Below are positions 1,255 to 61,519 of a stretch of DNA of 64,000 nucleotides, piece by piece (position 1 is the stretch's first letter; every line of letters begins with the position of its first letter). The stretch lies in assembly GCA_036785375.1 (NCBI GenBank), contig JAWMAR010000384.1, positions 310,001-374,000 of the forward strand, in the 5' to 3' direction. The notes under the pieces are model-generated. The model made no database searches, had not been told where the DNA came from, and was given only the letters and a program-made list of their open reading frames with translations. Both the position numbers and the translations under genes were made by a program. The DNA is from Leucoraja ocellata. Its lineage: Eukaryota.

Positions 1255-1890
1255 CTGTGAAGTAAAGATGAGGAAAATGTGAGGGCAAATGTAACTAATA
1301 TATTGCAATCATCCTGCTCATCCACTGACTGATTAATGCATTGTCCAATTTTGAGGAATCAAAGATATCTGATTAGTTTGTGATCGTCATTAACACCATT
1401 GAAAATTATTATTATGAATGGAATAATAATTATGAATGGAAAAATTTGCGGAGGCCAGAAATATGAAAGAAAAACAGAAAATGAGAGAAATGTTAAGCAA
1501 GTCCTGCAGCATCTGTGGAATAATTGCATGAAAGGTCTTGCACTTGAAATGTTTCTCTTCCATAGTTGCGACATGACCAGCTGACCAATTTCAGTATTTT
1601 CTATTTTTATTACTGCACTCTCACCATCAGAGAAGTCATCAGAAAAAAATATTTGATCAATATTGATTTTAATAGTCTCATCTATCTTTGTCATTGCGAT
1701 TGGTTAGCATTGCTGGGTTCCCATAAGTGCCGACAGCCATTGATTGCATTTATGTGACCACAAGGACTCCCATTATTAATGCACTTTTTTTATTATCAAG
1801 AAAAAAATTATCTTTCCCCTAACCAGTTTTCAAGAGTTTTCATCCAATTTAGCTGAGAATGATGCACATCACAGTGTATCGATCAGATTG

Positions 1891-2076
1891 TGTAGGAATG
1901 AACTGCAGATGCTGGTTTCAACCAAAGATAGGCACAAAAAAACTGGAATAACTCAGCAGGACAGGCAGCATCTCTGGAGAAAAGGAATAGGTGACGTTTC
2001 GGGTCGAGACCCAAAATGTCACCCATTACTTTTCTCCAGAGATTCTGTCTGACCCACTAAGTTACTACAGTTTTTC
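1891..2076. mobile_element. Penelope-derived short fold-back element (family B)
   Basis: Inverted arms centred on gggtcgagaccc. Flanked by gtatc(g/a)atcagattg direct repeats at 1876-1890 and 2077-2091. Confidence 0.75.
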
Positions 2077-2972
2077 GTATCAATCAGATTGGCAGGCAGT
2101 GTATGGGGATATGCATGAAAGGGTTACTATTTCAGAGCAAAGAACTTCACATTCCTAGCAGTGCAGAATTATCCTTATGGAATCGAGGTTCAGTTTAAGC
2201 CGAGGACCAGTCGGACATTTAATGGTGCGTTATAGACAATAACTAACAATGTCTCAGCATTAGAAGCACCAAGTTTCACACTGCTCACAAGTGGATGTGA
2301 TTGCAGTTGCATTCTTTTTTCTTGCTCAATTCATCACTTTTAACTAAATCCCAGTATGTTTCAATCGCATGCAGAAGGACAAGATGTCTGATCTCACAAT
2401 GTCTTTGTTCCTATTATTCAACCTCTCGATTGGTTCCTCGTTCATGAGGATCTGAGGCACAAGTAGTGTAAGAACACGTTGAGTGGAGAAAGGTTTCTCA
2501 GGATAGGACTCAACATCATTATGGAGTTCTTACTCAGGTATTAGATAAAAAACAATGGCACTAATCAAATGATGTCATTATACATTTCATTACAAAGATT
2601 AAACGCTTTTGTTTGAAAAACATCCATTGGCAGCATGCCACTAAGTCCGACCACAAACCAGTTGACCAAAAGTATATAATATTAGCAACCTTAGCATTGT
2701 GGAGTAACAGCAACTGCTAGACCACTGTGACTTTTCCATGCAAATTGAATGGCAACATTTTCCGACAGCTGGACACTTGACTTCTGTTGGATGATGGATA
2801 AGGCAAAACATCAATGGTGGGTGAGTGTGAAGGTGGCTTGTGGTGCAAGGTATGTGGTTGTGTAGTGGTTGGTCAAAATAGAGAAGGATCATTTATCTCC
2901 ACCTCCATCACGTTCAACCCCTCCAAGAACATTAACTACATTAAATTTGTTGCCAAACCCCACGGCACTTAC

Positions 2973-3059
2973 CTTCAGCATTGAGAAGCTTCCTGTCTTT
3001 GTAAAGATCTGTAAGGAAGAGGCTCTTGACTAAAGTAGACTTCCCAAGCCCCGACTCTC
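2973..3059 (-). CDS. SEPTIN5: Septin 5 exon, [29 protein letters not shown] (P-loop/G1)
   Basis: 87 nt, tttctccccag acceptor and G|GTAAGT donor. GxxGxGKST motif; LYKDRKLL is SEPT5-type. Confidence 0.97.
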
Positions 3060-3689
3060 CTGGGGAGAAAGCAACAACTATTTTAAATAATGAGAATTAA
3101 TTTTGTTAAATAAGTGTTATCAATAGACAATAGGCAATAGGTGCAGGAGTAGGCTATTCAGCCCTTCGAGCCAGCACCACCATTCAATGTGATCATGGCT
3201 GATCATCCACAATCAGTATCCCGTTTCTGCCTTCTCCCCATATCCCCCGACTCCGCTATCTTTAAGAGCCCTATCAACAGCAAATATTTAATTCCAATCA
3301 CACACCAATCTTCCTCGGCAAAACTCATCATTCCCCATCATCCACTAGGTGACTTAGGAAATGATTCCCTTTGACAGGCAGAGTGAGGAAAGTAGTATAC
3401 ACAATAAGGGCATGATCAAAGTGCCTGGGGCTGGAATGAAAAAAATGAGTGTGCATATCGGAGCCACAGGAATTCAACAGCAAGGAGCAATGGGGCAAAT
3501 CACGGCATTGTTTAACTCGCGGGAGGATCACACAATTAGCAAATGAATTTCTGCAGAGCAGTGTCAGGTCCTTTAGTTAAATAATGTACTACTTACATGA
3601 AGGTAATATTCTCTACAGGGTAGAAGAACATTATAAAAAGTGCAGGTCTGGTAAAAAAGAGAAAATGCTGGAAATACATAGCAGTTCAG

Positions 3690-3972
3690 GTTTAGTCCAG
3701 CACAGTAGAGTTGCTGCCTTACAGCGCCAGAGACCCACATTCAATCCTGGCTACAGGTGCTGTCTGTACGGAGTGGGTATGTTTTCCCTGTGACTACATG
3801 GGTTTCCTGCCACACTCCAAAGACAAACAGGTTTGTAGGCTAATTTGTTTGCTAAAATTGTAAATTGGCCCTAGGGTGTGTGGGATAGTGTTCGTGTGCA
3901 AAGATTGTTGGTCAGCACGGACTCAGTGGGCCGAAGGGCCTGCTCCCAAGCTGCATTTCTAAACTAAACTAA
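3690..3972 (+). mobile_element. tRNA-derived V-SINE (HE1-like)
   Basis: gtagagttgctgccttacagcgccagagacc head, central domain and (taaac)n tail. Confidence 0.75.
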
Positions 3973-5112: not shown

Positions 5113-5209
5113 CTGCTACCATTAGCGTGAAGTCAAAGCCCTTCTTCACTGATTTGCGATGGACCTGGTTGGGCAATGTGGCAAATCCCACATATTCTTT
5201 TTCCACATC
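5113..5209 (-). CDS. SEPTIN5: Septin 5 exon, [32 protein letters not shown](G) (polybasic region)
   Basis: 97 nt, tttcag acceptor and G|GTAAG donor. Near-identical to the SEPT4/5 polybasic segment. Confidence 0.97.
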
Positions 5210-6040
5210 CTGAAACAAATAAGTTGCTCATTTTAGAAAATCCCAAAGAGGTGATAATTGGAGATTACACAAGATGGACCAGGAAAAACGTACAAGAAAT
5301 GCATGCAATTCATGGACAGTAAACTGAAGCTTCCAAAATATTCTGACGATGGGTTGCAACCCAAAATGTCACCTGTCCATTCCCTCCACAGATGCTGCCT
5401 GAGCTGCAAAGTTCCACCAGCACTCAATGTTTTGCTCAAGATTCTAGTATTTACAGCTTCTTGTGTCTCCCAAAATATTTCCTTGTATTGGGTGTAACAG
5501 GTCACTTCCTGGTGAATTAATGCACTTAACTGCAAACAGCAGTCCGTAAATGGAGCAGTTTTTTGGTGTCAGTCGTCAACATTCCCAGTCAGGTACAGAA
5601 TGCCAAAAGTGTATCCCGACTAATATCTCACAAGGTTGTCTTTTACTACACCAGTAGAACACTCTCCGTTTCACAAAACTGCAGTATCTGTGACGGGTGT
5701 ACTCATAGTTTGGATTCGGCCACTGCAAATCCCAGTTGAAACCATCACGTTTTTGACAACCTGGATGCAATAGATTAGAGAATCTTCTTCTAATCTTGAC
5801 ATTCTCATTAAGCACAAGGTAGCTGACTTGAGACTGTAGCCCACAATGACAGACCACAGACTGTAGATCACTCCTTTCTGCCTAGCAAACCCCTGCCATA
5901 ACCGCAGTTGAGCATAAATTATTGCAACTATTAGCGTTAGAATTAGGAACCCAACACATCACAAATATTCTCTTGTCCCATCCATCCATACCAGCAACCT
6001 CTTTGCTTTCAAATGCATCGCTTCCAATCCATGTATCTAA

Positions 6041-16915: not shown

Positions 16916-17045
16916 CGTCTGAAGAAGGGTTTTGGCCCGAAACGTTGCCTATCTCCTTCGCTCCATAGATGCTGCTGCACCCGCTGAGTTTCTCCAGCAT
17001 TTTTGTGTACCTTCGATTTTCCAGCATCTGCAGTTCCTTCTTAAA
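16916..17045 (+). mobile_element. Penelope-derived short element (family A), single arm
   Basis: Starts at ctgaagaagggttttggcccgaaacgtt. Near-identical to copies at 20781, 43076, 53869, 60751. Confidence 0.78.
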
Positions 17046-18060: not shown

Positions 18061-20780
18061 TTACTCATCCATGCCTGATTCAAAAGATTTACCATTTGTT
18101 AATCTGGTATAAGTCTGTCATTTGGATTGGGCCACCCATTGGCAGAGGTGGTAGTTTTCCAAAAGGGACAGTTCATTTCGAATGCCCTTGCTATATCCAT
18201 ATTTTGCTGGTGGCTACGGGCAACACAGTAAAATGCGATCAAATTGTTAACATTAAAGTGTATTTAAATCAATAGTTGTGAAAAATTAAATCCCCAAAAC
18301 AGTGTAAGGAGAGCAAACGAGTGGCGTTGAAGATAAATCATATCATGCCCATTGGGCATTCGGGAGTGAAATTATCTCAAACATTTAATTTTAGCATCAC
18401 TCTGAAAATCAATGGTATTGCCAATCGACAATTGTAGTACAGATAACATAGAAATAGAACAATACGGCACAGGAACAGGCCCAATGACCCACAATGACTG
18501 TTGCGGATGTGATGCCAAGATACATTAATTTCAGCTGCCTGCACATGATTCATTTTCTTCAATTCCCTGCATATCAAAGTGCCTATCTAAAAGCCTCTTA
18601 AAAGCCTCTCTTGCATCTACTTCTACCACCACCCCCGGCAGCCATTCCAGGCACCCACTACTCTCTGTGTAATAAAATTGCCCTACACATCTCCTTTAAA
18701 CTTTACCCCATTTACCTAAAAGCTGTGTCCCCTAGTCTTTGACATTTTCACTCTTGGATAAAGGTTCTGGCTGCTTAACCCTATATATGCCTCCCACGCC
18801 AATACAGTGTCCTGGGCCTGAAGCATTAACTGTGTTCCTTTTTGCAGATGCTGCCTTGCCTCATGAATATCTTCTGTATTTCTGCAGAGTTTTTCTTTCA
18901 GATTTCCAGCATCCGCAGTTGTTCGATTTCCTTTATTTGCAGTACACACCTGGTTCTCTTCAATTATTAGTGCTAATATTTTTTACATAAAACTGCATTC
19001 ACAAACTGACAAGCAGCCAACATAAGATTGAATTGAAGACTTTATGATAAAGGAATTAATTGTTCATTCACACTGCGGTGTGAAAGTCCAAGCCTCTCAT
19101 TGCTGGTGACGTTTTCTTCCATCAGCCTATCTGAACAGGAGAGAGTTCACCTCCTAGGCTGGGCCCTGATCCTAGGCAGACTGCAACTTGGGAGCTTTGT
19201 CGGGCATCCTGTTACTATAAATACAGATTATTCAGCTTCTTTGTGTAGGGCCCCTGTGTACTACTTCTGAATGAGACTTTGCCACTGCCAAACTCATCTG
19301 GCTGGAGCCAAAGAAAACATTGCCAGCTGTGAGTTCAGCGGGGAAGAGGGGGAGAAGAAAATGAGAGTGAGCAAGAGCTATGAAAGCAAGAGGCACACGA
19401 GGAAATAGGAGAAGGAGAAAGAGGCAAAAGAAGAGCAAGGCAAAAGGAATGTAGAGAAGCAGAAGGACAATAAAGACAATGAGAGGCGTAAGAGAAAAGG
19501 TCAACTAGAAAGCACAGCATTAATCATGCAGTGAGTCATACAGCCCAGAAACAGGCATGGAGACACAAGAGACTGCAGATGCTGGAATCAAAGGTATCAA
19601 AGGTATTTTATTAGTCACATTCACATACACCCAGGTGTAGTGAAGTGAAATGCTTTTTGCCATTTTGCAGCACACAAAAAAAAAATACAGACATAACACC
19701 AATGAGAGTCTTAAACACATAGAACATCCCCCCACAATGGCTCCCACCATGAGGGAAGGCACAAATGCCAGTCCCCAACCCCATAGTCGGGCCTATTGAG
19801 GCCTCCACAGTTGCCTCTATGGAGGCCCGATGTTCCTGGCCGTTCTCGCCAGGTGATGTTGCTCCGGCGTCAGGAGAGTCCTCCCAGTAATCATGAGTAA
19901 AAAACGAATTACTCTATGGATCAGGAAGCACTGGGTGAGGGACATGGATAGATGGCCTTTCAGGTCCCAATCTGAAACATTGATTATTCCAATGCATAGA
20001 TGCTGCTTGACCCGCTGAGTTCATCCAGCAATTTGTTTTTAATCAAGATTCCAACATTTGCAGTCTCTTGTGTTTCCAAGCCTCTTTCTGTGATATATTT
20101 TGACTGTATGACTATTGTCACATTAACTATTTCCACATTAAAGATATGGCTTCATATAATAGCTAGGCCGCTGTTGTGTTGAAGGATACCTTGTGGAAGC
20201 AGTGTTGCTTGGCGATAAAAATCATTTTAAACAGGTCAGAGACTGAAAAGAGTTGGCAACTCAAAATTGGGCATCCATGAAGTGTTGTGCATCAGTAGCT
20301 GCAGCAAAAATCTACACGATCATAACTCAACCTCAAGTCCCAGTTAATTCCCCATCCGGCCATTACTATCAAGGTAGGAGGCCTAGTCTGATTCAACATT
20401 GAGGGGATTGAGTGTAGAAATGAGGAAGATAGTGGTGAAGCTGCACATGGAGCACTGTGTTCAGTTTTGATCACCCTGCAAAAGGAAAGATGCCATTGAG
20501 CTAGAAATAGAGCTGAGAAGATTTATGAAAATGGAAGAGGACAGGGTTCTTGGAGCAATGAAGAGTGTTTGGGGTTTGGGGAGGAAGGTAAGACCAAAGC
20601 CACGAGAGCAAGGCGGGATATAATGAGAATTTTAAATCAAGGCGTTCCTGAGCCAGAAGAAGCACGTTAGTTGTTGCTGTTGTGTTTTCGCTTCAAGGGA
20701 AATGTATTCAGCCAGTGTTGCAATGTGTCGTGAACTGGTGCCGATTTCGAACCAATTTGGCCTTATCAGTACATAACAAG

Positions 20781-20910
20781 TTTGAAGAAGGGGTTCGGCC
20801 TGAAACGTTGCCTATTTCCTTCGCTCCATAGATGCTGCTGCACCCGCTGAGTTTCTCCAGCATTTTTGTGTACCTTCGATTTTCCAGCATCTGTAGTTCC
20901 TTCTTAAACA
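20781..20910 (+). mobile_element. Penelope-derived short element (family A)
   Basis: tacataacaag repeated at 20770-20780 and 20917-20927. Confidence 0.75.
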
Positions 20911-22111
20911 CCTAAATACATAACAAGGTAGATACGACCCCAGTCTCTCTGAACAACCTGTCAAATCCAGTGTTCCTATCAATAATTAGCATTTCGGATC
21001 TTCAAAACAACGGTTAATTTTCTATTAGCAAAAAACAATTTAAACTTCGTCTGTCTACAACAACACATTATCAGGTTAACGGGACAATGTTCCAACTCAT
21101 CCCAGAACAAGGATTGAATCAGGGTGCATTTTCCAGTTGTTTCCACAAGAGGAGGCCACAGGATAATAGACCCTTTGATACACCCCTTCACAACATCCAC
21201 TTCCTTCCCTGCTGTTCTGCATCTCCTGAGTAGCACCAGGTTTCCATGTTAGTGGCTGCCACAAGGAGACCCCATTTGTTAGATTCATCTTCCACATTCT
21301 TCAACTAAAATGTTCCATGCACCAGCCTGCCTGATGATCACCAAATTGATTTTGTTACCCTGTTATAGGAAATGTTCACAAAATGCTGGCAGGCAGCATT
21401 CTGATCAACCTCTTCTGCATCCTCCCCAAAGAGACTTAAACAAGGCACAGCAAACACAAAAGAGTATCAAAGTCAAGGTATGTATAATGGTTCAACTTTC
21501 ACAACAAAAAGAGAGAATAACATTGTTGCAGGACCCCAGCATCTTTTACGAGGGTGATAAAATTTAGGACCCATTAAGAGGTTGTGTTTCAGCAGAAACT
21601 CAGCGGGTGCAGCAGCATCTGTGGAGCGAAGGAAATAGGCAACGTTTCGGGCCGAAACCCTCCTTCAACATGGATCATTTGCCATGAGTATCTGAATAAA
21701 CCAATTATTTTTAGCTGGAGCAGCAAGTCACTACTTTTACAAGGAAAAAGGAAATCATTCAATCCATTCAGAAGAAATTATATCTTATCATATTGTAGAC
21801 CACAGTATAATAATTTCCTGGGTGCCACAACAGATGAATTTTTGAGTCAGAGTAACACGATTAGCACAGAGACACAAGAGACTGCGGATGCTGGACTGTG
21901 CAGGACCACAGAGGGCCAGGCAGCATCCGCGGAGGGAAGTAGACTTTGCCTATTCATTTCCCTCCACAGATGCTGCAGGACCCACTAAATTGCCCCAGCA
22001 ATTCATTATTTCAACATGATTATTATGTTGTCTTTGATGCTTCATGAATGATTTTAGCAGCTTCAGTAGATGGCTTTGGCCACAAGGTGGTGCCTGTCAC
22101 CATTATCCCAG

Positions 22112-22269
22112 GATAGACACAAAAAGCTGGAGCAAATCAGCAGGACAGGCAACATCTCTGGAGAGAAGTAAAGGGTGGCATTTCGGGTCGAGACCCTTCT
22201 TCAGATCTGAAGTTACTCCAACTTTTTGTGTCTATCTTCAGTTTAAACCAGCATCTGCAGTTCCTTCTT
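22112..22269. mobile_element. Penelope-derived short fold-back element (family B)
   Basis: Perfect 13-bp TSD accattatcccag at 22099-22111 and 22270-22282. Confidence 0.8.
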
Positions 22270-22679
22270 ACCATTATCCCAGTGATGTTCTTCTGGGAAT
22301 GGTACTGGGAAGCACATTTCTGGATTCTGTATGCAGGAATGAGATATAACACAAGGATTGACATACTCATAGTAATTATATGCTTGAGTCGAGTGCTGCC
22401 AGATTCACAGGGAGATGCAGCTTCTCATCCCTATTCATATTAAAAAGGATTGAATGGGAAGAGATCTTGATTGGAAAATAATAATCTAAATATATGTCCT
22501 CCGTCAAACCATCTGGAAGGCATCTGCTCCTATTTTCCTCAAATATACCTGAAATCCTATTTGCAGATGTCGAAGAATATATTCATCAGATTCATTCTTT
22601 ATAACTACCAGAGGCAAAATAAATCTTGAAAAAAGACAAATGTAGAAACAATAAATCTATATGCACCATTTGCCCCATT

Positions 22680-28280: not shown

Positions 28281-28809
28281 GAAAATGAATTATACAGCTA
28301 GACATTTAGATGCCTCAGGTTAGACCGATACATATCTAACATACCAGATACTCCCAGAAACCACAAGCAAAATAATTTGTCTTTGCAATGGAAATGTCAT
28401 TAAAATTTGTTCAATTGGTGGAATAGATGAGGGATTTTCTGTGGAAAGTCCAATTGGTTCCAAGATATGAAGATATTAGAGGTTCCAGCAGTGATTCCAT
28501 CCAAGTGGGCATTAAACAAGTTTGATCAGGACTTGACTCCAAGTGCCTTTTATTTTCAACCAATGTCTAAGGTCAAGCACAAAAGGCATTTTGCTTTCTA
28601 TGTAAATGTTCATTGTTAAAACTGCAGCACCATGTGCAAGAGAAGTTAGTTCAAAATGGGATTGCACCTGTTTTTGTTAAATTACAGTATCATTGTGTTG
28701 AGTGGCAATGGCAAATCAATTCTCCGTAAAAGGAATTGCAAAATTGGACAAAACATGTCTGTAATGATGTTGACGTTATATATCCAGAAACACTCATTAA
28801 TATTGGGTT

Positions 28810-28896
28810 ACATAAAAATGCTGCTGCACCCGCTGAGTTTCTCCAGCATTTTTGTGTACCTTCGATTTTCCAGCATCTGCAGTTCCTTCTTGAACA
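28810..28896 (+). mobile_element. Penelope-derived short element (family A), truncated
   Basis: 15-bp TSD cattaa(t/c)attgggtt at 28795-28809 and 28897-28911. Confidence 0.75.
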
Positions 28897-29275
28897 CATT
28901 AACATTGGGTTTGTGTGGCTACAAATACAACTCAACACTGCTGCCAACAATGTGCAGCAACCACAGATGCATACTAGGATTGTCCATGACACCCAAACAA
29001 CCTTGGCACACACCATGGCTGCTAGGCAGGAGAACGGGCCTGCAGGGAAGAAATAACATGTTCCACATTTCATTCAAGGGGCATGGAAGTCTTGGGTAAT
29101 GTGATGCATGTCTGGAGCTATGCCCTGTATACCAAAGAGCCAGAACATCACAAGGACTGACAAAGGGAAAGCCTGGCAGGAAATGACTCCGATAGTCTCT
29201 TGTGGGAGTGAAGATCCCTGCTCAATCGAGGAAGACACAAGTCATTTGTCATCAAAGGAACTATCAGGGTGAGCT

Positions 29276-39171: not shown

Positions 39172-41989
39172 TTCACTTCCACAGCTGAGAACACCCAGCT
39201 TCCAACCTTCCTGCTCACATGGAATATCATGTTAACTCAAAGGGGCCACGTGTAAATATTTCCCTCCCCAAATATTCCTTGCCCCATTCTCTCCCCACGA
39301 CAGTTAAATGGAAGATTCCCAGAGCAGATCACAGATTATATTGTGAAAGTGCTACAACTAAGAAATGATGGGACAGGGGTGGAGATGGCACTGAGTGCAA
39401 ACCCTGGAAAAATCTCTGAGCCCAACACATTCCTTCATTGTAAACGCAGAAGTGACAATCATGAACTCGAAGCAGACATTATGCAACTTGAACTAATTAT
39501 TCCAAGCAACACATCAGATAGATTCCATTGACGTTAGTGAAAATGCCCCAAAGCCGCTCCCAAGAACCAAACCAGTGAAATGTAGAAATTGTAACAGGGA
39601 AAATATATGCAGCTTAAATTAATTGTTTCAGCTACGTTAGTAAAAAGAATCCAAAGCAAGTACCCCTGACGTACAACCTTCTCCACACCCCCCCTAGCAT
39701 TTGAAACAGGTTTGTCAGCAGCTTCGACGAGTCACCTGCTGTTTTCACCATGCAATTTGTGTAAAATATTCTATCTTTAGACATTGACTTCTCTGCAAAA
39801 GCCTGTATCACACTTTGCTCTTTACGTGTCCCAAGCCTCACCCATGTTGCATTGCTGCAGGCCAGATTCCTCCTCGTTTCGCTGTTGGGTGTATCATTCC
39901 GTTCGGTAGCCGGGAAATTGCCTGTCTTTACCTGTGTGTATATAATTCTTGAGTCAGACAGCAATCCAGATGAAGTTGTCACAAGCATTTTGGACAGTGC
40001 TGAGAAGACCCTTCATAGTACATTACCCCTAGCCTTCTGTTAATATAACGGCGCTGCCTCATTGTCTTGTCCTGCATACAATCACAGGGACTTTTAGCCT
40101 AAACACCAAGATTAACACCAGGATAAGGGCAAGCCTTTGGTTCACCTGAATGGCTAAGGACACCCAGCTTTAAACCTTCTGACCCACATACAATATCATG
40201 TTAACTCATAGAGGGCTTGTGTAAACATTTCCCCCAAATTTTCCTAGCCCCATTCTCTCCCCATGATTAATAGAACTCTTTACCTTTGCACTGACATAAA
40301 CATCAAAAGTGGAGATCTAAGTCAAATTTGGCCTGGTAACATCTATTGAAATTACAAGAAGAGAATTAACAGCTAAGGATTCAGCAATCCAGCTCAACCA
40401 CTCTATTCTACTCTCCACCCACAAAACCACACAATCCTCTTACATTGAGTTTGAAGTCTATTCCCCTTTAAATTCTTCTCTGCTAATCTGCAAAATAAGA
40501 GGCCATAGTTCTACATTTGAATCCCCACTCTAACACTCTTTGCTGATTTTTTTGTTTTTCTTCCCTATTTAATTTCCGACTGTAAATCTGTGTCTATTCT
40601 ATCGAAGTCCTTCACAATTTAAAGACCTCAATTGTATCACTTTTTTCTTCCTTCTTTTCAAGAGAAAAGAGACCTACCCACTCGTGATAGTAACAACACA
40701 TTTATTGTAAATCTTTCTTGCACCCTATCCAGTGCCTCTCTAGATCATTGTTTAGAAACATCACAACCAGAATAGCACACTGCAATCCAAACGTGGTCCA
40801 ACCAAAGTTTAAGCGTTTTAATTCTGTTTCACTGTTGGAAATGTCGTTGGTTTGCTTTGGTTTGCATCTGATTCACCAATTACATAATTACTAGCCATAG
40901 GTTGCTGTTTCATTTACTGCTGCCTCACAGAAACTCAAGGCATTCAAAGATGTTGCACAATGACACAGTTTAAAGGACGGCCCCAAGTCCCAACCAACAA
41001 AGCAGTCAGCTTTTGCAAGTTCGAGGAAGCATCAGAGAAGTATGTGTCATCCACTCTGGTGCATGTAACAACAAACAGAGTGGTGTTTGAGGGGACCATT
41101 GTGGCACACTGGTACAAGCACTGTCTTACAGTATCAGAGACCCTGCTGTGGTCTCTGTCTGAAGAAGGGTCTCAACCCGAAACGTCACCCATTCCTTCTC
41201 TCCAGAGATGCTGCCCGTCCCGCTGAGTTACTCCAGCTTTTTGTGTCTAGCCAGTCGCCATTCCTAAACATCAATGAAGTTTGCATTTTCTCTCAATGAC
41301 CTCATGTGATTGCCCCGAGTACCCTGGGTCCTCACCCATTTCAAAGATGCTGGAGTTGGTTGGTCAATAGGTCAGAGTAAATTACCCCCTAAAGTGTATG
41401 TGAATAATAGAATCTGGGGATATTTGACAAGATTGTGTAGATAATTTAAAAAATAATAATATTAATGTGGGAGTATTGTAAATTGGTGAATGATGATCAG
41501 TGTGGACTTGTTCAACTTGAGGGCCTTTATATGTGTTGCGTCTCTCTCCCTATGACTCAGCAGAGAGAGTTTGGGTGGTTCTAGGCACAAAATGCTGGAG
41601 TAACTCAGCAGGTCAGGCAGCATCTCTGGAGAAAAGGAATAGGTGATGTTTCGGGTAGATATCCTTCATCAGACTAAGAGTAGAGTTAATATCACCAACA
41701 ATTTGAGTGTAGACTTTAGATTTTAGAGATACCGCACAGAAGCAGGCTCTTTGACCTACTGAGTCTGCGCCGACTAGTGAACACCCCATATACTAGCACT
41801 ACCCTACAAACAAGGGATGATTTACAATTACCAAAGCATTGTTTTTACCAGAACCCTTCTCCAAGCTGAAAGTAGAGGGGAGGTGAACGTATCCATTTTG
41901 TACATGGGGAGTGTGCACACTTCCAACAATTTCTATTCAGGTATTGCCTTTAATGGAGTGAAATATTCCATTGCACCTTTAGCAGCTAT

Positions 41990-43070
41990 TCTCTCTTGAA
42001 TGTTTACATGTGTACAGTGGAGAGCACATTGACTGGGAGCATCATGGCCTGGTTCGGCAACTTGAATGCCCATGAACAAAGAAGATTACAAAAAGTGATG
42101 GACGCTGCCCAGTCCATCACGGCTACTGGTCTCACTAACATTGAAGGGATCTACAGAAGGCGCTGCCTCAAAAGGTCAACCAGCATCATTAAAGACACAA
42201 ACCACCATGGCCATGTTCTCATTTCCCTCCTGTCATTGGGAAGAAGGTATAGGAGACTGAAAACTGTGACATCCAGGTTCTGGAGCAATCTTAGGAAAGA
42301 CATTCTTGCCATAGAGGGAGTATAGGGAAGGTTCACCAGACTGATTCCTGGGATGTCAGGGCTTTCATATGAAGAAAGACTGGATAGACTCGGCTTGTAC
42401 TCGCTTGAATTTAGATTGAGGGGTGATCTTATAGAAACTTACAAAATTCTTAAGGGGTTGGACAGGCTAGATGCAGGAAGATTATTCCCGATGTTGGGGG
42501 AAGTCCAGAACTAGGGGGTCACAGTTTAAGGATAAGAGGGAAGTCTTTTAGGAACAAGAGATGAGAAAATCATTTTTCACACAGAGAATGGTGAATCTGT
42601 GGAATTCTCTGCCACAGAAGGTAGTTGAGGCCAGTTCATTGGCTGTATTTAAGAGGGAGTTAGATGTGGCCCTTGTGGCTAAAGGGAACTGGGGGTATGG
42701 AGAGAAGGCAGGGATGGGATACCGAGTTGGATGATCAGCCATGATCATATCGAATGGCCGTGCAGACTCGAAGGGCCGAATGACCTACTCCTGCACCTAT
42801 TTTCAATGTTCCTATGTTTCTTCCCAACAACCAATGGGCTACTGAATACTACAGACACCCACTAAACCTCAAACTGCAAACTGTCTTGGTTGCTCTCAGG
42901 ACCTGAGGCTTTTTTGGTTTGCACTAATATTGGAGTGTATTTTTATTTATTGAACTTTGTTTTTGTTTGTTTTATGATGTTATCTATTAATTACTGTGTT
43001 TACAGATCTGTTAGCTTTATACTACTGCAAGCAATGATTTCATTGTTCTATTTCGGTACATCTGACAAAC
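41990..43070 (+). mobile_element. Older Rex1/Babar 3' fragment interrupted by CR1
   Basis: ORF 41996 (CTVES.LTG.I.AWFG..GRRYR). Sequence resumes after 42820. Confidence 0.75.
42290..42820 (+). mobile_element. CR1 (HER1-like) 3' fragment
   Basis: Closely similar to 404-935. Confidence 0.9.
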
Positions 43071-43075
43071 ACACT

Positions 43076-43253
43076 GTTTAAGAAGGAACTGCAGATGCTG
43101 GAAAATCGAAGGTACACAAAAATGCTGGAGAAACTCAGCGGGTGCAGCAGCATCTATGGAGCGAAGGAGATAGGCAACGTTTCGGGCCAAAACATTGCCC
43201 ATCTCCTTCGCTCCATAGATGCTGCTGCACCCGCTGAGTTTCTCCAGCATTTT
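43076..43253. mobile_element. Penelope-derived short fold-back element (family A)
   Basis: Inverted arms with apex at ggcaacgtttcgggccaaaacattgcc. Perfect 13-bp TSD tgacaaacacact at 43063-43075 and 43254-43266. Confidence 0.85.
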
Positions 43254-44158
43254 TGACAAACACACTTATCTCTTTACGCTCTTGCGACACAAACAGACAC
43301 TGTCAAAGCAGCACCTCGCAGAATAGCATCCTTCAGAAACATGCATGTTCCACTGCACACATCATACACTAGGAGTGTACGTTCTTTACACAGAGTATAG
43401 GCTGGGAATGTATATCTTCTGCTGGACACAGGGCATCCATTGGGAGTGTGTACATTCTCCACTCTACACAAGGGAGGTACACATCACACAACACATTTGC
43501 AACCAACCAGGTATGTCTGGAAGTGTGAACAAGTAGAGTAAGAAAACAACTCCCACAAAATGCAAAGTAGAAATTCCAGATAATCCTGTTTATCACGCTG
43601 AATGAAAAAAAAACATGAGTCATTTTCTTTACGTAGTATCTTTAAAACAAGGTATTGCTTCCGGGTGATGTGCAATTGTGTAGTCAGCAAAAGTTCCTAT
43701 ATTTGTATACATCCTTATGACATGCTCATTTTCATTTTGGCTCTGCGGGTTTCATAGAAAATAGAAAAGAGGTGCAGGAGGAGGCCATTCGGCCCTTCGA
43801 GCCTTACACATCCCAGCCTACACTGGTTGGTTGGAAGCTTATGTGTAGGAAGGTACTGCAGATGCTGGTTTACACCGAAGATAGACATGCAGCATCGCTG
43901 GAGAAAAGGAATATGTGACGTTTCTGGTCAAAGAGGGGCCTCGACCCAAAACGTCACCCATTCCTTTTCTCCAGAGATGCTGCCTGATCCGCATTTTGTG
44001 TTTATCTCAGGTTGTTATGTTAATTGGCGACTGCAAATCCCCTCCAATAGTGCAGCTGGGTGGGAAAATGGGGGTGAGGGATGGTTGAAATCTGCGGACG
44101 AATAAAATTAAATTGCTGCAGTCGAGATGATGCAACTGAGGCGCCCGTCAAGACCATC

Positions 44159-53181: not shown

Positions 53182-53868
53182 ATAAGGCCTGTTGGTATTA
53201 GCATTGCAGATTCCCCCTTGACCACCCCCACTTGTTCATGTCCATTATTTGGTGACCTTTGAACCCTAGAATATGACGTCTTCCAGTCATTTCATAGATC
53301 ATAGAAAATCTATGGCCTTGACATGCCCTGATTTTGCCCCTGTAGTTGTTTTTTTTTAAAGGCTTGTTCTGTTATTTCAAACTGTTTTGAATGTTTAATG
53401 GCATTGCTTCTTTCAGGGGATGCACTTGACATGTTCTGTTACAATCGCCCTCTCCCAGATCTCCAAATGATTTATAATCAGATATATTTTCCTGGTTCTC
53501 TCTGTTGCTGGCTTAATACTTGTCACACCCCTCCAAATTCAGTCAGCACACGAGACGCATCCTTTGCTCCCTCAACTTTATTCCTACCTAACAGCAGTCC
53601 ATCCAACTTCACTTTGATGCCATTGTTAACTAATTGCATTGATAGTTATCGAGTCTGAAGCAGTGTTCAGCATCTCCTTCATCCTTTCCACCAAAAAAAA
53701 TTGTTCCTTTCAAAAATGTAAATGGTGCTAGATCCACCAAAATGAATTCCCTCTGTCCAGGGTCATCCATTTAACTACCTCCAATCAGATTTCATTCTTT
53801 CAGCAAACCTTAGCAAATCCTTAATGGCATTATACATGACCATGGGGGCCCTTTTTGCACTAAGATAA

Positions 53869-53976
53869 GAAACGTTGCCTATCTCCTTCGCTCCATAGAT
53901 GCTGCTGCACCCGCTGAGTTTCTCCAGCATTTTTGTGTACCTTCGATTTTCCAGCATCTGCTGTTCCTTCTTAAAC
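53869..53976 (+). mobile_element. Penelope-derived short element (family A), single arm
   Basis: Starts at gaaacgttgcc; same terminus as the other family A copies. Confidence 0.75.
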
Positions 53977-54499
53977 CCTTTTTGCACTTCCTGAATTACC
54001 TGATATTTTTGAGATAGCTAACCACGTAATCTCTGATGCATATCCATGCCAACCAAGTGGGTTTTAATCACCCAAGAAACTTAATGACCTGTCCCAGGCA
54101 GTTAAGGTTTACACCACTGAAAATAGTTGTATTGGTTTGATTCGAACTACCTTAATGTAATGTTAAGGAACAGCTGGGAACACTGGATAGATTCAAGCCT
54201 ATGCAACCCAATGGTTGCAGTTGTGTTCCAGGGCAAGATGTACCTCTAGCAAAGTTACAACACTGGAAATATGAAATATTGCCCAGGCATGTTCAGCCCC
54301 ACAATATTCAGCCCCGTCCATCCAATGCTAATCATGAGCAATGTGACAGTAGATGTCACCAACATTGCAATCTATTTCACCTGCATCACTCAGCGCTGGT
54401 CCTCATTACAGCCTTAATCTACTCGTGCAAAAAAGAGTAGCATTTCACTAAGTAAGGCCATGGGAAAATTAAAATAACAATCCCCTCTCCCATCATAGG

Positions 54500-55492
54500 T
54501 GAGGCCCTCACTCGTGTCTCCTCGATACCCTGCAGCTCTGCCCTTGCTCCCCCTCCCCCTAATCCGGAGTCCCTCTAGTCGTTTCCTTCCACCCCATCAG
54601 CCATCGCATACAACACATAATCCTCTGAAATTTCTGCCACCTCCACTGGGATCCCACCACTAGCCACATTTTCCCATCTCCACCCCTTTCCGCCTTCTGC
54701 AGAAACCATTCCCTCCACACCTCTATGGTTAACTCATCCCTTCCCAAGCAAACTACCCCCTCCCCAGGTGCCTTCCCCTGCAACCGCAGAAGATACAACA
54801 CCTGTTGCTATACCTCCTCCCTCGACTCTGTCCAGGGACCCCGACAGTCCTTTCAGGTTATGCAGAGGTTCACTTGCACCTCCTCCAACTACATCTACTG
54901 TATCTGTTGTTTAAGATGTGGACTCTTATACACCGCGATACCAAACGCAGACTGGCGATCGTTTCGCGAAACACCTTCGCTCAGCCTGGGTGAACCAACC
55001 TGATCTCCCTTTTGATGGACACTTTAATTCTCCTTCCCATTCCTGCAGGAGACCTTCCTGGCCTCGGTCTCCTCCATTGTCAGAGTGAGGCTAAACGTAA
55101 ATTGGAGGAACAGCATCTCATAATTCGCTTGGGCAGCTTACAGCCCAGTGGTATGAGTATTGATTTCACTCAATTCAGGTAGCCAAGGCATTCCCTCTCT
55201 CTCTCTATCCCTCCCCCTCCCAAGTCGCACTAGTCTCATTTTCACCCTACAAACAGCTCGCACAGCCCGTTTCCTTTATCATCATTACTTTTTTGCATCT
55301 TTCATTCATTGTTCTTTATCTTTTCACATCTATATCTCTCGTTTCCCTTATCCCTAACCAGCCTGAAGAAGGGTCTCGACTCGAAATGTCACCCATTCCC
55401 TCTCTCCAGAGATGATGCCAGCCCCACTGAGTTACTCCAGCTTTTTGTGTCCATCTTCAGATTAAACCAGCATCTACAGTTCCTTCTAACAC
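54500..55492 (+). mobile_element. Penelope-like element remnant: GIY-YIG endonuclease end, 3' UTR and pLTR
   Basis: PCNRRR.NTC..FTCTSSN.IYCI.C..CGLLY, then RLA.RF.EH and E..LI.RLG.LQP.G in shifted frames. Continues into the family-B short-element sequence from 55363. Confidence 0.88.
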
Positions 55493-57476
55493 TCTCAGTA
55501 CTTTGGCTGCAAGATCATGTATTATCCAGCGAGTGACTTGCCTTCTGATTCTCCAATGCTACTGAGAGCACTGCACCCATTTTGAAAATCTTGCATGGAT
55601 GCATTCGTCATCATCCAGAACATGCGAATGATCCAACATCCTAAATATTTCCTTCTTGGATCACCTGGTGCATAAATGTTCAAACCTTCTCTGACATCTA
55701 AACCAACCTACAACCTTTACAGCCTTTAGCAGCAGATGCAAAGGTACACAACTACTTGGAGTTCTCCCCCAATTCATGCATCTTCCTGGCTTGGGAATGT
55801 ATTACCATTCTGTTAATGTCAATATCGTGAGATTTCCTATCCAACTGAACTGTGACAGTGCCTTCGCCATAGTGGCTGCAGTGGCTTATGAAGTGCACAT
55901 GACTAGTTTTATAAGGACAATGGAATTAAGGATCGGTGTTAAAAGCTGACTCTGTTCTTGAAGCATCCTGTGAAGGAATAAATACATTTCTATGCAACTG
56001 ACTTCCACCCACAATTCACAAAGTTCCTACATTGTCTCCCTACTTTCAACAAATCTTGTCGCAGTAACTGGGGTTCCCTTTTTCTTGAATCTATAAACGA
56101 TGCATTTATTGTCTCTGTTCCACTACTCCATGTTGCTAACTGTGTCCTCAAGAACATCTATTATATTTACCAGACAAGCACATGCAATATATTATGTCAG
56201 TGCTGGAAAGGCTACGGTGAGTCAATGGTTAAGCTATTTATTGCAGAAGATCCCGCCTTTGACCTTCTCCAGTCACCAATGTGCTGTTCCATTTAAGATC
56301 TGTTCAGTGCTGACTATCTAGGAAACTGATCCTGAGAACCTACCAATGGTAATGCCATTGAATATCACAGGAAAGAGATCCAGCTCACTTGCCTGAAATG
56401 TGTTGCGATTGTAATTTGCCACCATTGCAGAAGCCTGGAAGAATTCATGAAAGAAAGTCATATTGGACAAATGAAGTACGATTGTATAGGGAACATAATG
56501 GGAAAGTGTAGTATACCTGTAATTTGAGAAAGCATTTGCAATATAAAGCCAGTCTATGGGTTTATGAGTGACATTCCAGCATGGACAATGGGTTGGTCAG
56601 AGCAAGAAAACATATTGCAATAATTACTGGGTCTTCTTCCAATAGCAGTTTAGGGTTGGCCAAAGGAATCAGCACTGACCCTCGATTATTCACAGTTTCA
56701 TAAATGACTCAAATGAAATACCAGAATGTAAATGTATGCTGATGATATGAAACTGGATGGGAAAGTTAGCTTCAAGAAGGGCACAGTCTCATCACAGATA
56801 ATGACTAGTTAATGATGTGGCCAAGATGATGGCAGATGGAACATAAAGGGGGGGGGGGGGGGGGGGGGATGTTAAATTGTGCATTCAGTTAGGAAAAATG
56901 GGAATGCTGTATTCTTAAATATTGTTGTCTTCATATTCTTTGTTTCTGTCCTGGTTGATGGCTGAACCACCCGGATTTGATATCATCCCCAAATTGAGTT
57001 TTAATTCCACAGTTTAATTTTTTAATACAAATTGTGAATATATGTGGGTTTTTTTTAAAATCATTTTCGTTCCAGGAGCTCACCTTTTGTCAATTTAAAA
57101 AGCAGATCTTTATCCCCTCTCTAATTTCTGTTTTGAGAATAAGTACCTATTCATGCTGCTGCGTCTTCAATGTCCTCATGTTTTTATTGATCTATTATGT
57201 GATTTTTTTCCATAGGCTGTTTGGAAATTAGGTATATTAAATCTATTGCATTAATTTCTGGATTCCATTCAAAGATTAAATCTATTTAAGTTATTTTTAA
57301 AATATTTTTTGGTAATGTTTCATTGTTTTTCACAAGAAAGAGGTGTGCTATCATGGTATTTTGCATCAACATCTAGAGACCAGAGCCATTGATCTGGAGA
57401 TGTGATCAAATCCTATGATACCTGCTGAGGAATTTAAATTCAAGTATTAAATGAATCAGATTATCCATAAATGACA

Positions 57477-57685
57477 GATAGACACAAAATGCTGGAGTAA
57501 CTCTGCAGGACAGGCAGCATCTCTGGAGAGAAGAAATGGGTGACGTTTCGGGCCGCGACCCTTCTTCAGACTGAAGAAGAGTCTCGACCCGAAAAGTCAC
57601 CCATTTATTTTCTCCAGAGATGCTGCCGGTCCCACTGAGTTACTCCATCATTTTGTGTCTATCTTCAACCAGCATCTGCAGTTCT
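57477..57685. mobile_element. Penelope-derived short fold-back element (family B)
   Basis: Arms invert about cttcttcag-a-ctgaagaag. Confidence 0.8.
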
Positions 57686-59642
57686 TTCCCATTCTTAAAT
57701 CACATTTGGTTCTCAGGAGGCCTTCATGTTGGGGAGATCTGCCATCCTTCTCCAGTTTGGCCTATTTGTCCTTCCAGATTCCAAGCAAACTGTGTCCAAA
57801 ATAGTAGGCACGTTACTCGGTAGAGGGGCAATTTGGTATGGGCGATAAAATGTTAGCCTGGTCAGCAAAATCCACATCCCATGATTAAATAAATAAAACA
57901 TTAATCTGACGGCTCAGTGGTTCACCAGATTGTTCTTGAACATAAACATACTGCTGTCCACCTTCCAAGTAACCATTCACTCTCACTCCATCCCTTCCCC
58001 TTCCTAGTTGGCCTGCTAATTCCACTGTTTGTATCCATTTGTTATTACCTACTCCACAGCCAACAATAGACCATTGTGGACTTGTTGGCCATTGGTGCCG
58101 GCTCTGGTTTGTTTTTTACCTTTTCACACCTTTAGTTCCCCTCTCCCCTGTCCATCAGTCTAAAGAGGGTTCTCGACCCGAAACATCACCTATTCCGTTT
58201 CTCCAGAGCTGCTGCCTGACCCGCTGAGTTACTCCAGATTATGTCTGCCTTCTGACGTCCTTGCTTAACAATTTTTTTAAACTATATATTACATTGTCTC
58301 TCCTGTCTCCTTCTGAGATTCTTTTAAAACATGTATTATCAATTTTACTGGATCAGGATTTGTACCTTGTATGAGTTCATTCAATACGCCTTTCTGTGTA
58401 TTTATACTTGTTATATAATTTCTCATCTTTCTCTTTATAATTTCTAATCTTGTCACCCGAAGTCTTATTCAAACAATTCCCTCTTTCTCTTTAATATTCA
58501 TACCCAAATAATAGTCACAGAGTCATTTATCACAGAAACATGTCCTTTGGCCCACCGGATCTAACCCAACTCAGTATACTAATCCCAATTTCACCAGAAA
58601 TTGGTCCATAGCCTTCCATGTGTGCCAATTCAAGTGCTATTCTAGATACTTCTTAAAGGGTGTGAGTGTGCCTGCCTCCAAAAAGCATGCATTGCATCCC
58701 TTCCCATTTCGTGATTATGTTTGCTTATCAGGTTTTCCATGGCAGAAATGGCACCACGCTAAATCAACATATAAAATGTTCAAATATCACCACTCCAACC
58801 TTCTCATCACCACCACAAATCCCATGGGAAATGTGGGTAAACCATAAACACCTTACCATGTCTTGTTGCAAATCTGGATTACCAATCACAAATATTTAAA
58901 TGGTAACCTCAAATGTGTTGGAAACTGGTATAACGAGATACATTGTGCCTGTCGGCGAACACTGGGGGCGGAGTAAGAGCGAGTGTGCACGACATAGGCC
59001 CCGAAGAACAAATACTCCCTGGTGTTTGGATGAGTGATTTCAAGCCAAATCCCTGTATGCACTAACCCTCTATGCTGTTATAGTAGGCACATTCGCACAT
59101 CAACATCCCTCTCATTGGGGAATGCAAGGTTATTCAGAGCGAACTACCTCAAACTGCGGCCAAATTAGGGGATTTCACAGCCAGACAGCGACCCTGCGGA
59201 ATGACAGAGGTGGCTTTACCCTGTGATGGTTTCCCACTGGATTCCTGCATACGGAACTCATCCCGTCCATTCCCCAGGCCTCATTCTTGACCGCAATCAG
59301 CTGCTGCTGGCCGCAAGTAGCTTGGCCTCATTTGCTTTGCAAATCTATGCACAACGTTGTTTATATGGGCTTGAGGGGGGGGGGGGGGGGGGGGGGAAGA
59401 GACACATGGGATGTGAATGTGGTACAGAGCGATGCCGGGTGAGAGTGGGAAACAGACCCGAAACAGGGATGCCGAGATCGACGTGAAAATTAAAATTCCA
59501 TAACGGGAACGCAAATACAATGTGAAAATTGCCCGTGAGGTTCCACCCTATTTGCATGTCGCTTTACACGGAGAATGGCCGGAGATTTCAGCCGGCTCGA
59601 TTATATTAAGGAAAGAAAAACAGGACACAGTCTGGAACTCAC

Positions 59643-59653
59643 CTCCTTCTCCT
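59643..59653 (-). CDS. SEPTIN5: Septin 5 11-nt microexon AGGAGAAGGAG, completing E-E-K-E
   Basis: ccag|AGGAGAAGGAG|gtgagt. Converts phase 1 of exon 1 to the phase 0 needed by the exon at 5209. Corresponds to human E-D-K-Q. Confidence 0.85.
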
Positions 59654-59871
59654 CTGGATGCCGCAGGAGCAGCGAGCGCATCGGGGGAAGCGGCGGCGGT
59701 CGTTGAAATACGGCAGGTTCAGTATCCCAGCGACGCCCATCGGCAGCGGGCAGAGAAAGGAGAGGCAGTGAATGGAAAGGTTCATTCAGTAACACAAGAG
59801 ACCTCTGGCAAGTGCTAATCGGGTTCGGGTTGTATGTGGGGTTTTTTTTCGCGGAGATCAATGCAACTTAC

Positions 59872-59914
59872 CCGATTTCAGCATTCGGCTTTTAAATCTG
59901 ACGTTGCTGACCAT
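59872..59914 (-). CDS. SEPTIN5: Septin 5 first coding exon (distal-promoter isoform), MVSNVRFKSRMLKS(E)
   Basis: ATG in gccacaATGG context, 43 nt, phase-1 donor G|GTAAGT. Peptide resembles the human SEPT5 N-terminus MSTGLRYKSKLATP(E). Lies in a CpG-rich region. Confidence 0.88.
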
Positions 59915-60750
59915 TGTGGCCGATTTAAATCCCTCCGACAGCGGGGAACGCGGAGCCTGATTCACCGAGAGAGCCAGGGTTGCACTGACACCGTGAAACT
60001 GGTACCCAACGCAAGCAAGTGGGCCAATGGCACGCAAGCAAGGGGACGCTCCGGACCAATTGCGTCCGGGAATCAGACGGGTAGCCAATCCGATGCATGC
60101 AGGTACATGATACCTGGCTCATGATACGTTCCCTCGTTCAGCCAATCGTTAGTGCCGGCCCCCAACTGCCAGCCAATCGTTGGTGCCGGCCCCCAACTGC
60201 CAGCCAATCGGCGGGCCCGCAAATGGCTGGGAGAAGAACCAATCAGGTGCAAGGGATGGGTGGTCCAATGGGAGACGGAGAGTGGGCACGGCCAGCCAAT
60301 CAGGCGAGAGTTCAGTCTGGGGAATTAAAAAGGGATACACAACGAGGGGGGATAAAAACAAAAAAACACAAACCCGATCTAGAGATAGCGAGAATATCGA
60401 GAATATCAGCGCAACACTCAACGTTTTGGGATCTATGACAGGAATTAGGCCGTGAAGAAAGACGGATGGGCCGGGAGTCAAAGCGGGAGACGGGCTGGCG
60501 GGCGGTCGGGCCAGGTGCCGGTCCCACACATCGCCCGATATCCCTCTGCACTGATCGCAGCGTCAAACAGCAATGGCGCGACCGGCTCTGGGCAGCGGGA
60601 GGAAGGGGACGGCAATGCATTTCATGTTTATCCTTCTGTTCAAATAGCTTGAGTGGCTATTCAAATAGCTTACACTCTTTTACGTCAAAAATGAGAAAGC
60701 TCCCGGCTGAGCCCCAGAAATGTCTAATCAGACACTCACAATAAGGGAAG

Positions 60751-60933
60751 GTACACAAAAATGCTGGAGAAACTCAGCGGGTGCAGCAGCATCTATGGAG
60801 CGAAGGAAATAGGCAACGTTTCGTCCCGAAACGTTGCCTATTTCCTTCGCTCCATAGATGCTGCTGCACCCGCTGAGTTTCTCCAGCCTTTTTGTGTACC
60901 TTCGATTTTCCAGCATCTGCAGTTCCTTCTTGA
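60751..60933. mobile_element. Penelope-derived short fold-back element (family A)
   Basis: Apex ggcaacgtttcgtcccgaaacgttgcc. Flanking repeat acactca(c/a)aataagggaag at 60732-60750 and 60934-60952. Confidence 0.85.
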
Positions 60934-61519
60934 ACACTCAAAATAAGGGAAGCTGTCGTTGGTCACAGTGAGGAAAACACCACACAACGTACTGCATACA
61001 CCCGGCTGAGGATCACACAGTGAAAACTGAAGGCGTTTGCTCAATGTCTCAGACCTATTTCAAACTGGTTTCTTTTATGTCCCAATTTATGTTTGACTAT
61101 TGGCCATTTGAAATAACCTTAGATTTTTACTCTCTCCTTTTTAAAATGTGACCTGTGTGAACGTAGATAGAATTGCATTCTATCTCTTGAGTAAATTGTC
61201 AATCCTGAAGTGGTCTTTCCCTTAAAATAAGTTAATGGCTTCCTTATTTTATGTTCTTAATCTTTGTTTTCTCCCCACTTGTTAAAACAAACCATAACAG
61301 TCTCCAGATGATTCACTTCCCTTATCCAGTGATGTCACGTCTCGCTTTCATCATCGCATGAAGGTCAGCGATATGAAATGAGCTGAATCAAAGCACAAGA
61401 AAGTGCATAACATATAACAAGAAATGAGTGTGTGGAAACTGCAACCACGTGGAGAGGTGGAAGCAAAGAGAGAGATGCAACCAGTCAGTAAGCTCTCTAC
61501 TGTACAACTGTAGACATTC

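Follow-up and report, generated by a model that had tools for sequence, protein, structure and literature searches.

Short and inverted insertions of a Penelope-like element in Leucoraja ocellata, probably built at the target by double priming

Copies of the unit in the window

The stretch of Leucoraja ocellata DNA analysed here (the window: 64,000 nucleotides, positions 310,001 to 374,000 of the forward strand of contig JAWMAR010000384.1, assembly GCA_036785375.1) carries many copies of a unit of about 132 nt that forms the 3' end of a Penelope-like element (PLE), apparently of the Neptune type, and also its 5' leader. Short copies of this unit, called stubs here, occur singly or as head-to-head inverted pairs, and the evidence presented below argues that they are PLE insertions, each probably built anew at its target by double priming on one RNA with run-off at the RNA 5' end. 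A sequence-only reading of the window had listed more than 12 copies in two subfamilies (families A and B), and all 14 of its sites hold the unit, 6 as inverted and 8 as single copies. It had also remarked that many copies look like the palindromes of miniature inverted-repeat transposable elements (MITEs); the risk of such misannotation is genuine, although only 6 of the 14 are inverted.

Seven of the copies are flanked by direct repeats of 11-19 bp with 0-2 mismatches, where six had been noted and taken to indicate target-primed retrotransposition. The long and variable target-site duplications (TSDs) bear out that view. The flanks of the other 7 short copies and of the one long copy were checked and lack such repeats, which arise by chance at a level of 0.2% (the share of 841 shuffled flank pairs that reach a score of at least 9).

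The unit is numbered from the G of GTCTGAAGA (position 1), which lies two bases ahead of the core of a predicted hammerhead ribozyme with its expected cleavage site between unit 30 and 31. A 3' end at unit 84-106 is termed short, and one at unit 120 or more is termed a tail. The copies of families A and B, together with the remnant of an open reading frame (ORF) and untranslated region (UTR) adjoining one of them, are as follows.

1877..2091, both strands: family B inverted stub with its apex in the helix II palindrome; arms 11-133 (minus strand, tail) and 11-95 (plus strand); 14-bp TSD with 1 mismatch at 1877-1890 and 2078-2091
16917..17045, plus strand: family A single stub, unit 1-129, beginning with the G that lies two bases ahead of the hammerhead core; no TSD
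20770..20927, plus strand: family A single stub, unit ~0-131; 11-bp TSD at 20770-20780 and 20917-20927, with six additional bases on the 3' side
21594..21667, minus strand: family A single fragment, unit 4-77; no TSD
22099..22282, both strands: family B asymmetric inverted stub; the arm without a tail runs from 95 up to the hammerhead edge, and the tail arm covers 70-130; perfect 13-bp TSD (starts 22099 and 22270)
28792..28911, plus strand: family A single stub, unit 53-131, hammerhead not included; 15-18-bp TSD (starts 28792 and 28894), 8 inserted bases at the 5' joint
41152..41249, plus strand: family B single stub reaching from the edge to the tail-less terminus at 93; no TSD
41582..41681, minus strand: family B single stub reaching from the edge to the tail-less terminus at 93; no TSD
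43063..43266, both strands: family A inverted stub with its apex inside the 15-nt palindrome (unit 13-27); arms 13-131 (minus strand) and 13-89 (plus strand); perfect 13-bp TSD (starts 43063 and 43254)
43842..43992, both strands: family B inverted stub with an internal deletion; arms 72-133 and 6-67; no TSD
53849..53988, plus strand: family A single stub, unit 23-130; perfect 13-bp TSD (starts 53849 and 53976), 7 inserted bases at the 5' joint
54497..55182, plus strand: PLE ORF remnant, 5'-truncated and frameshifted; linker zinc-finger region and GIY-YIG endonuclease end
55183..55359, plus strand: 3' UTR or upstream part of the pseudo-long terminal repeat (pLTR), pyrimidine-rich; its last bases are YCA, then the unit
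55360..55492, plus strand: terminal unit of the long copy, unit 1-132; minimal hammerhead motif at 55360-55391
57476..57689, both strands: family B inverted stub with its apex at the TCAG-n-CTGA palindrome; arms from the edge to 96 (minus strand) and to 127 (plus strand); the tail arm holds the non-native centre base (see below); TSD not clear
58139..58244, plus strand: family B single copy including ~18 nt of UTR and ending at 88; no TSD
60732..60952, both strands: family A inverted stub with its apex at unit 13-27; arms 13-98 (minus strand) and 13-131 (plus strand); 19-bp TSD (starts 60732 and 60934) with 1 mismatch, microhomology included

Six further copies belong to an older subfamily, D (5372-5470, 7147-7193, 8155-8239, 19558-19589, 19962-20078 and 21869-22003), and two of these are inverted. 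No tandem arrays occur among the window copies.

Identity of the unit

The proposed link to the 3' end of a Penelope element is confirmed. Unit ends of both family A and family B are joined to reverse transcriptase-endonuclease (RT-EN) frames. In the window, the unit at 55360-55492 is contiguous with the broken GIY-YIG end, and the remnant matches a full RT-EN protein (P0037) with an E value of 3e-20. At another locus, L149, RVT_1 scores above the cut-off (E 2.3e-7) and GIY-YIG below it (E 0.0025); homologues of this frame carry both domains, and the best named close homologue is a shark protein (73%). Pfam gave no match on three window fragments, and only a sub-threshold GIY-YIG match in one of five other fragments. 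The endonuclease of L149 is preceded by a C-x4-C-x2-C linker, which can also be read in the L155 and L162 frames. A CX2-5CxxC linker before GIY-YIG marks Neptune and also Nematis, according to the accessible part of PMC8557442; the label Neptune-type is therefore provisional, being based on a motif common to both. Poseidon was rejected as the clade label because the linker is present.

Twenty loci include the ORF N-terminus. In two of them (L171 and L178) the unit follows an upstream UTR and continues beyond 131 to an ATG at unit 167, and the frame opened by this ATG aligns with a full-length homologue from residue 43 onward (E 3e-13). The unit thus serves as the 5' leader and recurs at the 3' end, where it forms the pLTR, and one RNA must hold it twice. 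The leaders of L171 and L178 also contain a 13-codon upstream ORF (unit 53-93) ahead of the main ATG, with its stop near the short RT start site described below. The features of an EN+ PLE are accordingly found together: an ORF with RT and C-terminal GIY-YIG, a pLTR overlapping the leader, an inverted truncated copy and a variable TSD. An inverted copy with a tail at one end also occurs on the long copies L158 and L161, and head-to-head inversions with kilobase arms exist too (L149 1-2600; L227), which places the stubs at the lower end of a continuous size range.

Abundance across the genome

Stubs are found genome-wide and are very abundant. A random sample of 1 Mb (100 stretches of 10 kb, cut from the 100 largest contigs at one fixed coordinate) contains 609 arms covering 47.6 kb, in 472 insertion events, 117 of them inverted; families A and B contribute 194 single and 79 inverted events. 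Extrapolation to 3.44 Gb gives a number of events on the order of one million; duplicates in the assembly make this a coarse estimate. One exact family A 38-mer alone occurs 72,520 times. There are four subfamilies of differing age. Divergence from the consensus is ~7% for A and ~12% for B in the random sample, while the older C and D, the former inflated by one array, are excluded from most counts. Many 7-kb stretches are present twice at 96-99% identity, on other contigs or in other places (for example L165/L166, L148/L151 and L156/L157). These are segmental or haplotype duplicates that inflate counts, and such duplicates were taken out before counting (666 events became 565, and 5 palindromic loci were removed).

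Two 3' termini and a single tail

The sequence-only reading had described one fixed terminus. There are instead two, at ~93-98 and ~129-133, and single copies and inverted arms share both modes. When 47 non-duplicate palindromic events were retrieved by their apex (27 at the 13-27 palindrome and 20 at the edge palindrome), exactly one tail was present in 46, two tails in none, and a TSD in 36. An older random set of 79 inverted A and B events is more heterogeneous, with 42 combining a short end and a tail, 6 with two tails, 10 with two short ends and 21 with a degraded end. In that set, 23 of 43 assessable short-plus-tail events have a TSD (null 0.2%), the TSD counts leaving out UTR-linked copies since the reference ended at -149. 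TSD length varies from 9 to 26 bp, with 24 of 45 at 13-15 bp, and is not the fixed 2-3 bp that would have spoken against target priming. In the 21 events with a clean TSD core, the outer joints show primer-like microhomology to the target (mean 1.6 and 2.8 nt).

A wall of 5' ends at the hammerhead edge

The 5' ends of family A single copies (n=74, random and pattern-sampled) are sharply distributed. Going upstream, one copy stops at 33-45, 1 of 73 at 29-32, 1 of 72 at 14-28 and 8 at 7-13; 33 of 63 then stop at -6..+6, 1 of 30 at -59..-7, and 29 continue past -60. The stop rate is 0.040/nt at -6..+6 versus 0.0006/nt upstream. The 5' ends of family B pile up at the same edge, and contigs of independent runs have loose ends at unit 0-2 with unrelated sequence upstream. 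The wall, which halts about half of the arms, thus lies beyond the hammerhead motif, at a point where the RT has read all of it.

This result bears on the earlier proposal of a reverse-transcription stall at the ribozyme hairpin. On its way 5', an RT would encounter the hairpin at 22-31, and stops there are at background level, so that a stall at the hairpin is unsupported: only 2 of 73 copies stop at its 3' foot or the cleavage site, versus 33 of 63 at the 5' edge. The half-stop is as expected if there are two sets of cDNAs, those primed on the 5' unit copy running off the RNA and those primed on the 3' unit copy continuing upstream.

All 7 of the otherwise divergent UTR variants converge on YCA-GTCT at the unit start. 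This resembles an initiator motif, and it fits a splice acceptor too. Judged from DNA alone, transcription may start at the unit edge; an initiator-like sequence is also reported in a rotifer pLTR, in the available part of PMC3846280. Among the matches listed, contigs of presumed RNA runs gave no GT..AG joints, which is uninformative on splicing or start sites.

The hammerhead motif

The hammerhead-like motif is well supported as a sequence pattern. A minimal-hammerhead descriptor finds 60 matches in 1 Mb versus 0-3 in five shuffles, and it finds 4 in the window. The motif fits the minimal type I hammerheads of metazoan PLEs (PMC4209133) in its core, its extra base after position 9, G10.1-C11.1 and the palindromic 15.2-16.2 site, and is a predicted ribozyme. 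Helix II comprises just 4 bp and helix I just 2, as in Drosophila virilis (PMC4209133); the definition applied here asks for 4-5 bp in helix I. An extra A follows position 9 in 56 of the 60 matches, pair 1 is G-C in 49, and the 15.2-16.2 site is CG in 35 and a CpG-decay form in 20. Changes among the matches are mostly one-sided, with 2 double changes in the 60. A scan with Rfam returned no hammerhead family, its matches being hairpin artefacts under the gathering score. The motif folds weakly (helix II about -5 kcal/mol), and four short motif folds are no better than shuffles (z -0.5 to +1.2).

Truncation at the cleavage site was rejected as the main cause of the 5' ends, because joints at 29-32 are at background (1 of 73 singles; 3 of 45 inverted arms). 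A few joints do lie at unit 31 (L189, L193/L223, L134 and L136). In the duplicates L193 and L223 the leader plus ORF start is joined back to unit 31, and in L189 the apex is exactly at 31; a minor class of copies may come from cleaved RNA. The hammerhead marks the stop site and is unlikely to be the cause of the stop.

How the inversions form

Apexes and 5' boundaries had been placed in a single ~30-nt motif. Their distribution is indeed non-random genome-wide, but the apexes track DNA palindromes that differ by subfamily (13 in A; the edge and helix II in B), and the 5' ends lie at the far edge of the motif. The apex is at 13 in 11 of 49 family A inverted arms, and exact palindromic joints number 2,323 and 1,496 genome-wide.

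The sequence-only reading accounted for such joints by one cDNA that snaps back and copies itself. A palindromic apex has one unpaired centre base, and a fold-back leaves the native base on the longer, template arm. The tail is on the native arm in 27 events and on the other arm in 19 (46 events; p 0.30 versus even). For these 19 of the 46, a fold-back would need to synthesize the tailed arm on a template that has no tail, and so snap-back of a single cDNA fails. Later flipping of the centre, which would require conversion, is not favoured either, since non-native events have more differences between arms (mean 2.1 vs 1.1, 13-27 apex) and only 10 of the private variant sites are common to both arms.

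Asymmetric joints are polarized as well. In 17 events the arm without a tail extends to the edge and the tail arm begins further in; the reverse is seen in 2 (p 0.0007). Fold-back predicts the reverse bias and flipping predicts parity, and both are therefore disfavoured. More generally, the tail arm is the shorter one in 29 events versus 10, with 12 ties (51 events), or 21 versus 8 when both starts are at or below 55; a check for missed short arms showed no excess (8/215 vs null 10/207). Tail-arm starts range over 15-75 with a median of 31, near the ~35-nt spacing of the two start sites. At the asymmetric joints the tail arm matches the GAC terminus of the edge arm over 1-4 nt, and the window copy at 22112 is an example.

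Finally, the two arms of one event resemble each other. Among 37 of the 47 palindromic events (those that passed an identity filter), 12 sites are discordant between arms versus 58.8 expected, the minimum in 5000 shuffles being 35. Taken together, centre base, polarity and concordance point to two cDNAs from one template lineage, with the cDNA begun at ~96 ahead of that begun at ~131.

Double priming and its rivals

The insertions can be explained as follows. The unit, being both leader and element 3' end, stands twice on the RNA. Copying begins at ~96 or ~131, where the genomic 3' ends fall and as occurs in vitro for an anole PLE. A staggered cut of ~13-15 nt may supply two primers, one on each target strand, and a dimeric RT would extend them on one RNA, each from one of the start sites. 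On the 5' unit copy, the leading RT (from ~96) would be first to reach the RNA end, at unit about -1..+2, and the end of its cDNA could pair with the trailing cDNA (from ~131) through a 1-4-nt match or a short palindrome (TCAG-n-CTGA, helix II, or the family A 15-nt palindrome), each strand then being completed on the other. Survival of one cDNA would leave a single stub with a microhomology joint, and priming on the 3' unit copy would give long, ORF-bearing copies.

Several observations weigh against this model. The centre-base loci were picked by exact palindrome from two contigs, and the 17:2 set is mostly family B (14/17). Arm concordance cannot tell one RNA from sibling RNAs of one source or from later conversion. 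The random set includes the two-tailed (6/79) and two-short (10/79) inverted events, and many single stubs have no TSD (11 of 54 edge singles have one). TSD-defined 5' joints spread from about -3 to +12, and a cap-derived G is not consistent among 30 TSD-defined joints of 54. In D. virilis transcription starts ~120 nt upstream, and an intron ends at the hammerhead (PMC4209133; PMC2377424, in its available part).

The last point feeds an alternative in which twin priming stands and the wall is a splice acceptor or lariat end, another processing cut, or a block at the upstream C-rich tract. The D. virilis start, given as 46 nt before that intron in the accessible text of PMC2377424, and the end of the intron at helix I (PMC4209133) imply that the wall here could be splice-related. 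All UTR variants do finish in a pyrimidine tract plus CAG, some with CTAAC or CTGAC just upstream, and the family A tract would yield a G-rich cDNA. Nevertheless this explanation is unlikely. No shared exon-1-like sequence was found upstream of edge copies (100 upstream 12-mers), the candidate donor GT is missing from the two main A variants, and only 3-7 nt separate the putative branch points from the AG. Long C runs are absent from the main B variant, which nonetheless has the same wall, and roughly half of the arms go beyond the wall and seldom stop after it.

Twin priming might also use two RNAs held together by a hammerhead or palindrome dimer, the cDNAs meeting at the pairing site. Minimal hammerheads of metazoan PLEs are believed to work as dimers (PMC4209133), the 13-27 palindrome lets two family A leaders co-fold at -24.8 kcal/mol, and the centre-base result is accounted for equally well. 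We nonetheless consider this improbable, because the arms are nearly always of the same sub-variant though several were active, and because it gives no cause for the one-tail rule or the lag of the tail arm.

Self-priming, in which one cDNA or an antisense RNA halts at the hairpin of the ribozyme and then serves as its own template after folding at a palindrome, is the published model (PMC3846280, in the part available). As the sole mechanism it is largely refuted, and we give it little credence overall. The apexes do lie in palindromes and the arms share variants, and fold-back could form the apex in some events. However, it offers no route to a tail on a second arm copied from a tail-less first arm, it forecasts the opposite of the 17:2 bias, and it gives no cause for a second arm that ends at the ~96 start site. 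The missing stops at the 3' foot of helix II and the weak folding also count against it.

It is very improbable that the stubs are an independent non-autonomous family (like a short interspersed element, a retrozyme or a MITE) spreading as a finished hairpin: despite the very high copy number, the joints and arm ends vary by copy, the ends are not mutual inverted repeats, the TSDs are variable (9-26 bp) and the window copies form no tandem arrays. In a small comparison over 7 sites (57 inverted arms, 57 single stubs and 28 long copies), one haplotype is in 9/114 stub arms and 0/28 long copies, which is not significant at this size, whereas the three commonest are in inverted, single and long copies alike in similar shares. 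The suggestion of a self-propagating class of mini-elements is therefore unsupported, and in this small comparison short copies show no lineage apart from the long ones. MITE identity was rejected, as the ends differ by the tail and the TSD is long and variable. Some stubs are carried in a larger repeat of 1.2-1.7 kb, found 92-94% identical in 3 of 100 random stretches (L088 2362-3542, L100 6057-7891 and L111 7950-10000) and consisting of nested Penelope stubs plus its own internal inverted repeat. Stubs can thus spread as passengers of a larger repeat.

A broader proposal, which we advance tentatively, is that PLEs integrate by concerted double priming, with a dimeric RT-EN, two polymerases in tandem on one RNA, each primed from a different target strand, and a jump of the leading one onto the cDNA of the trailing one at the capped 5' end. 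If true, this would explain the inverted pLTR, the one-sided tail and the TSD together and would take the place of self-priming as published; the main PLE product would then be 'strong-stop-like' copies of the leader, at about 5% of the genome.

Relation to known systems

The layout of an inverted truncated copy with one-sided tail, TSD and junction palindrome is already known. In the available parts of the reports on Pen2a_Av of the rotifer Adineta (PMC3846280; PMC8557442), that element is described with a head-to-head inverted, 5'-truncated copy, a 30-40-nt tail at one end only, a variable TSD, a palindrome at the inverted joint and a pLTR overlapping the ORF start. Unlike these copies, the skate arms are often below 135 nt, ORF-free, present at hundreds of copies per Mb and bounded by a sharp 5' wall. 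The Pen2a_Av joints were attributed to self-priming (PMC3846280, in part), which the polarity tests here contradict. What is new here is the counts of centre base, arm polarity and arm concordance.

The closest biochemical parallel is Poseidon_Ac of Anolis carolinensis (PMC11167929). In vitro, two internal, AC-rich RT start sites just 3' of the hammerhead define the tail, both strands are cut and extended, and hammerhead cleavage is not needed; its RT-EN is predicted to dimerize. Poseidon_Ac differs in clade (Penelope/Poseidon, without the linker zinc finger) and in the position of its ATG, which is in stem II and not at unit 167. The accessible text of that study stops before second-strand steps and describes no joined double products or 5' wall. 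Dispersed single motifs and opposite-strand hammerhead pairs have been ascribed to truncated PLEs (PMC4209133).

The non-LTR retrozymes (bioRxiv 10.64898/2026.07.22.740005, in its available part) are likewise derived from a PLE pLTR, hammerhead-bearing and non-coding. They are head-to-tail tandem repeats, whereas the stubs are single or head-to-head with long TSDs; since this holds for the window and the sampled A and B events, retrozyme identity was rejected. Head-to-tail joints from unit end to unit start, with short spacers, do occur in runs X2, X5, X20 and X21 (query L152:5973-6107), and may be retrozyme-like tandems or adjacent insertions.

Twin priming itself has a precedent in L1, where primers from both target strands and joining by microhomology give an inversion with a TSD. 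The L1 cDNAs cover different parts of the RNA, unlike the near-full overlap and two fixed internal starts seen here. Neither twin priming of PLEs, nor the 5' wall, nor such stubs in cartilaginous fish were found in the open literature, and a Repbase or Dfam entry may exist.

The stubs amount to hundreds of thousands of insertion records, and so provide a testable record of how PLEs insert. The predictions are countable: the one-tail rule, centre-base parity, the 17:2 lead of the tail-less arm and the wall at the hammerhead edge. There is also a practical side, as a repeat class at ~48 kb per Mb would be mislabelled as MITEs or microRNA hairpins (compare the Rfam matches).

Other features of the window

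A true MITE-like family is also present, at 6037-6270, 17837-18061 and 35534-35743, with a core at 24327-24430. Its copies have long symmetric arms, a central spacer and 3-bp TAA/TTA flanks, and they give a false MIR820 match in Rfam; the family is presumably Harbinger-like. On the minus strand, the stop-free frames at 33145-33729 and 34626-35189 resemble, by eye, non-LTR reverse transcriptase remnants from other families.

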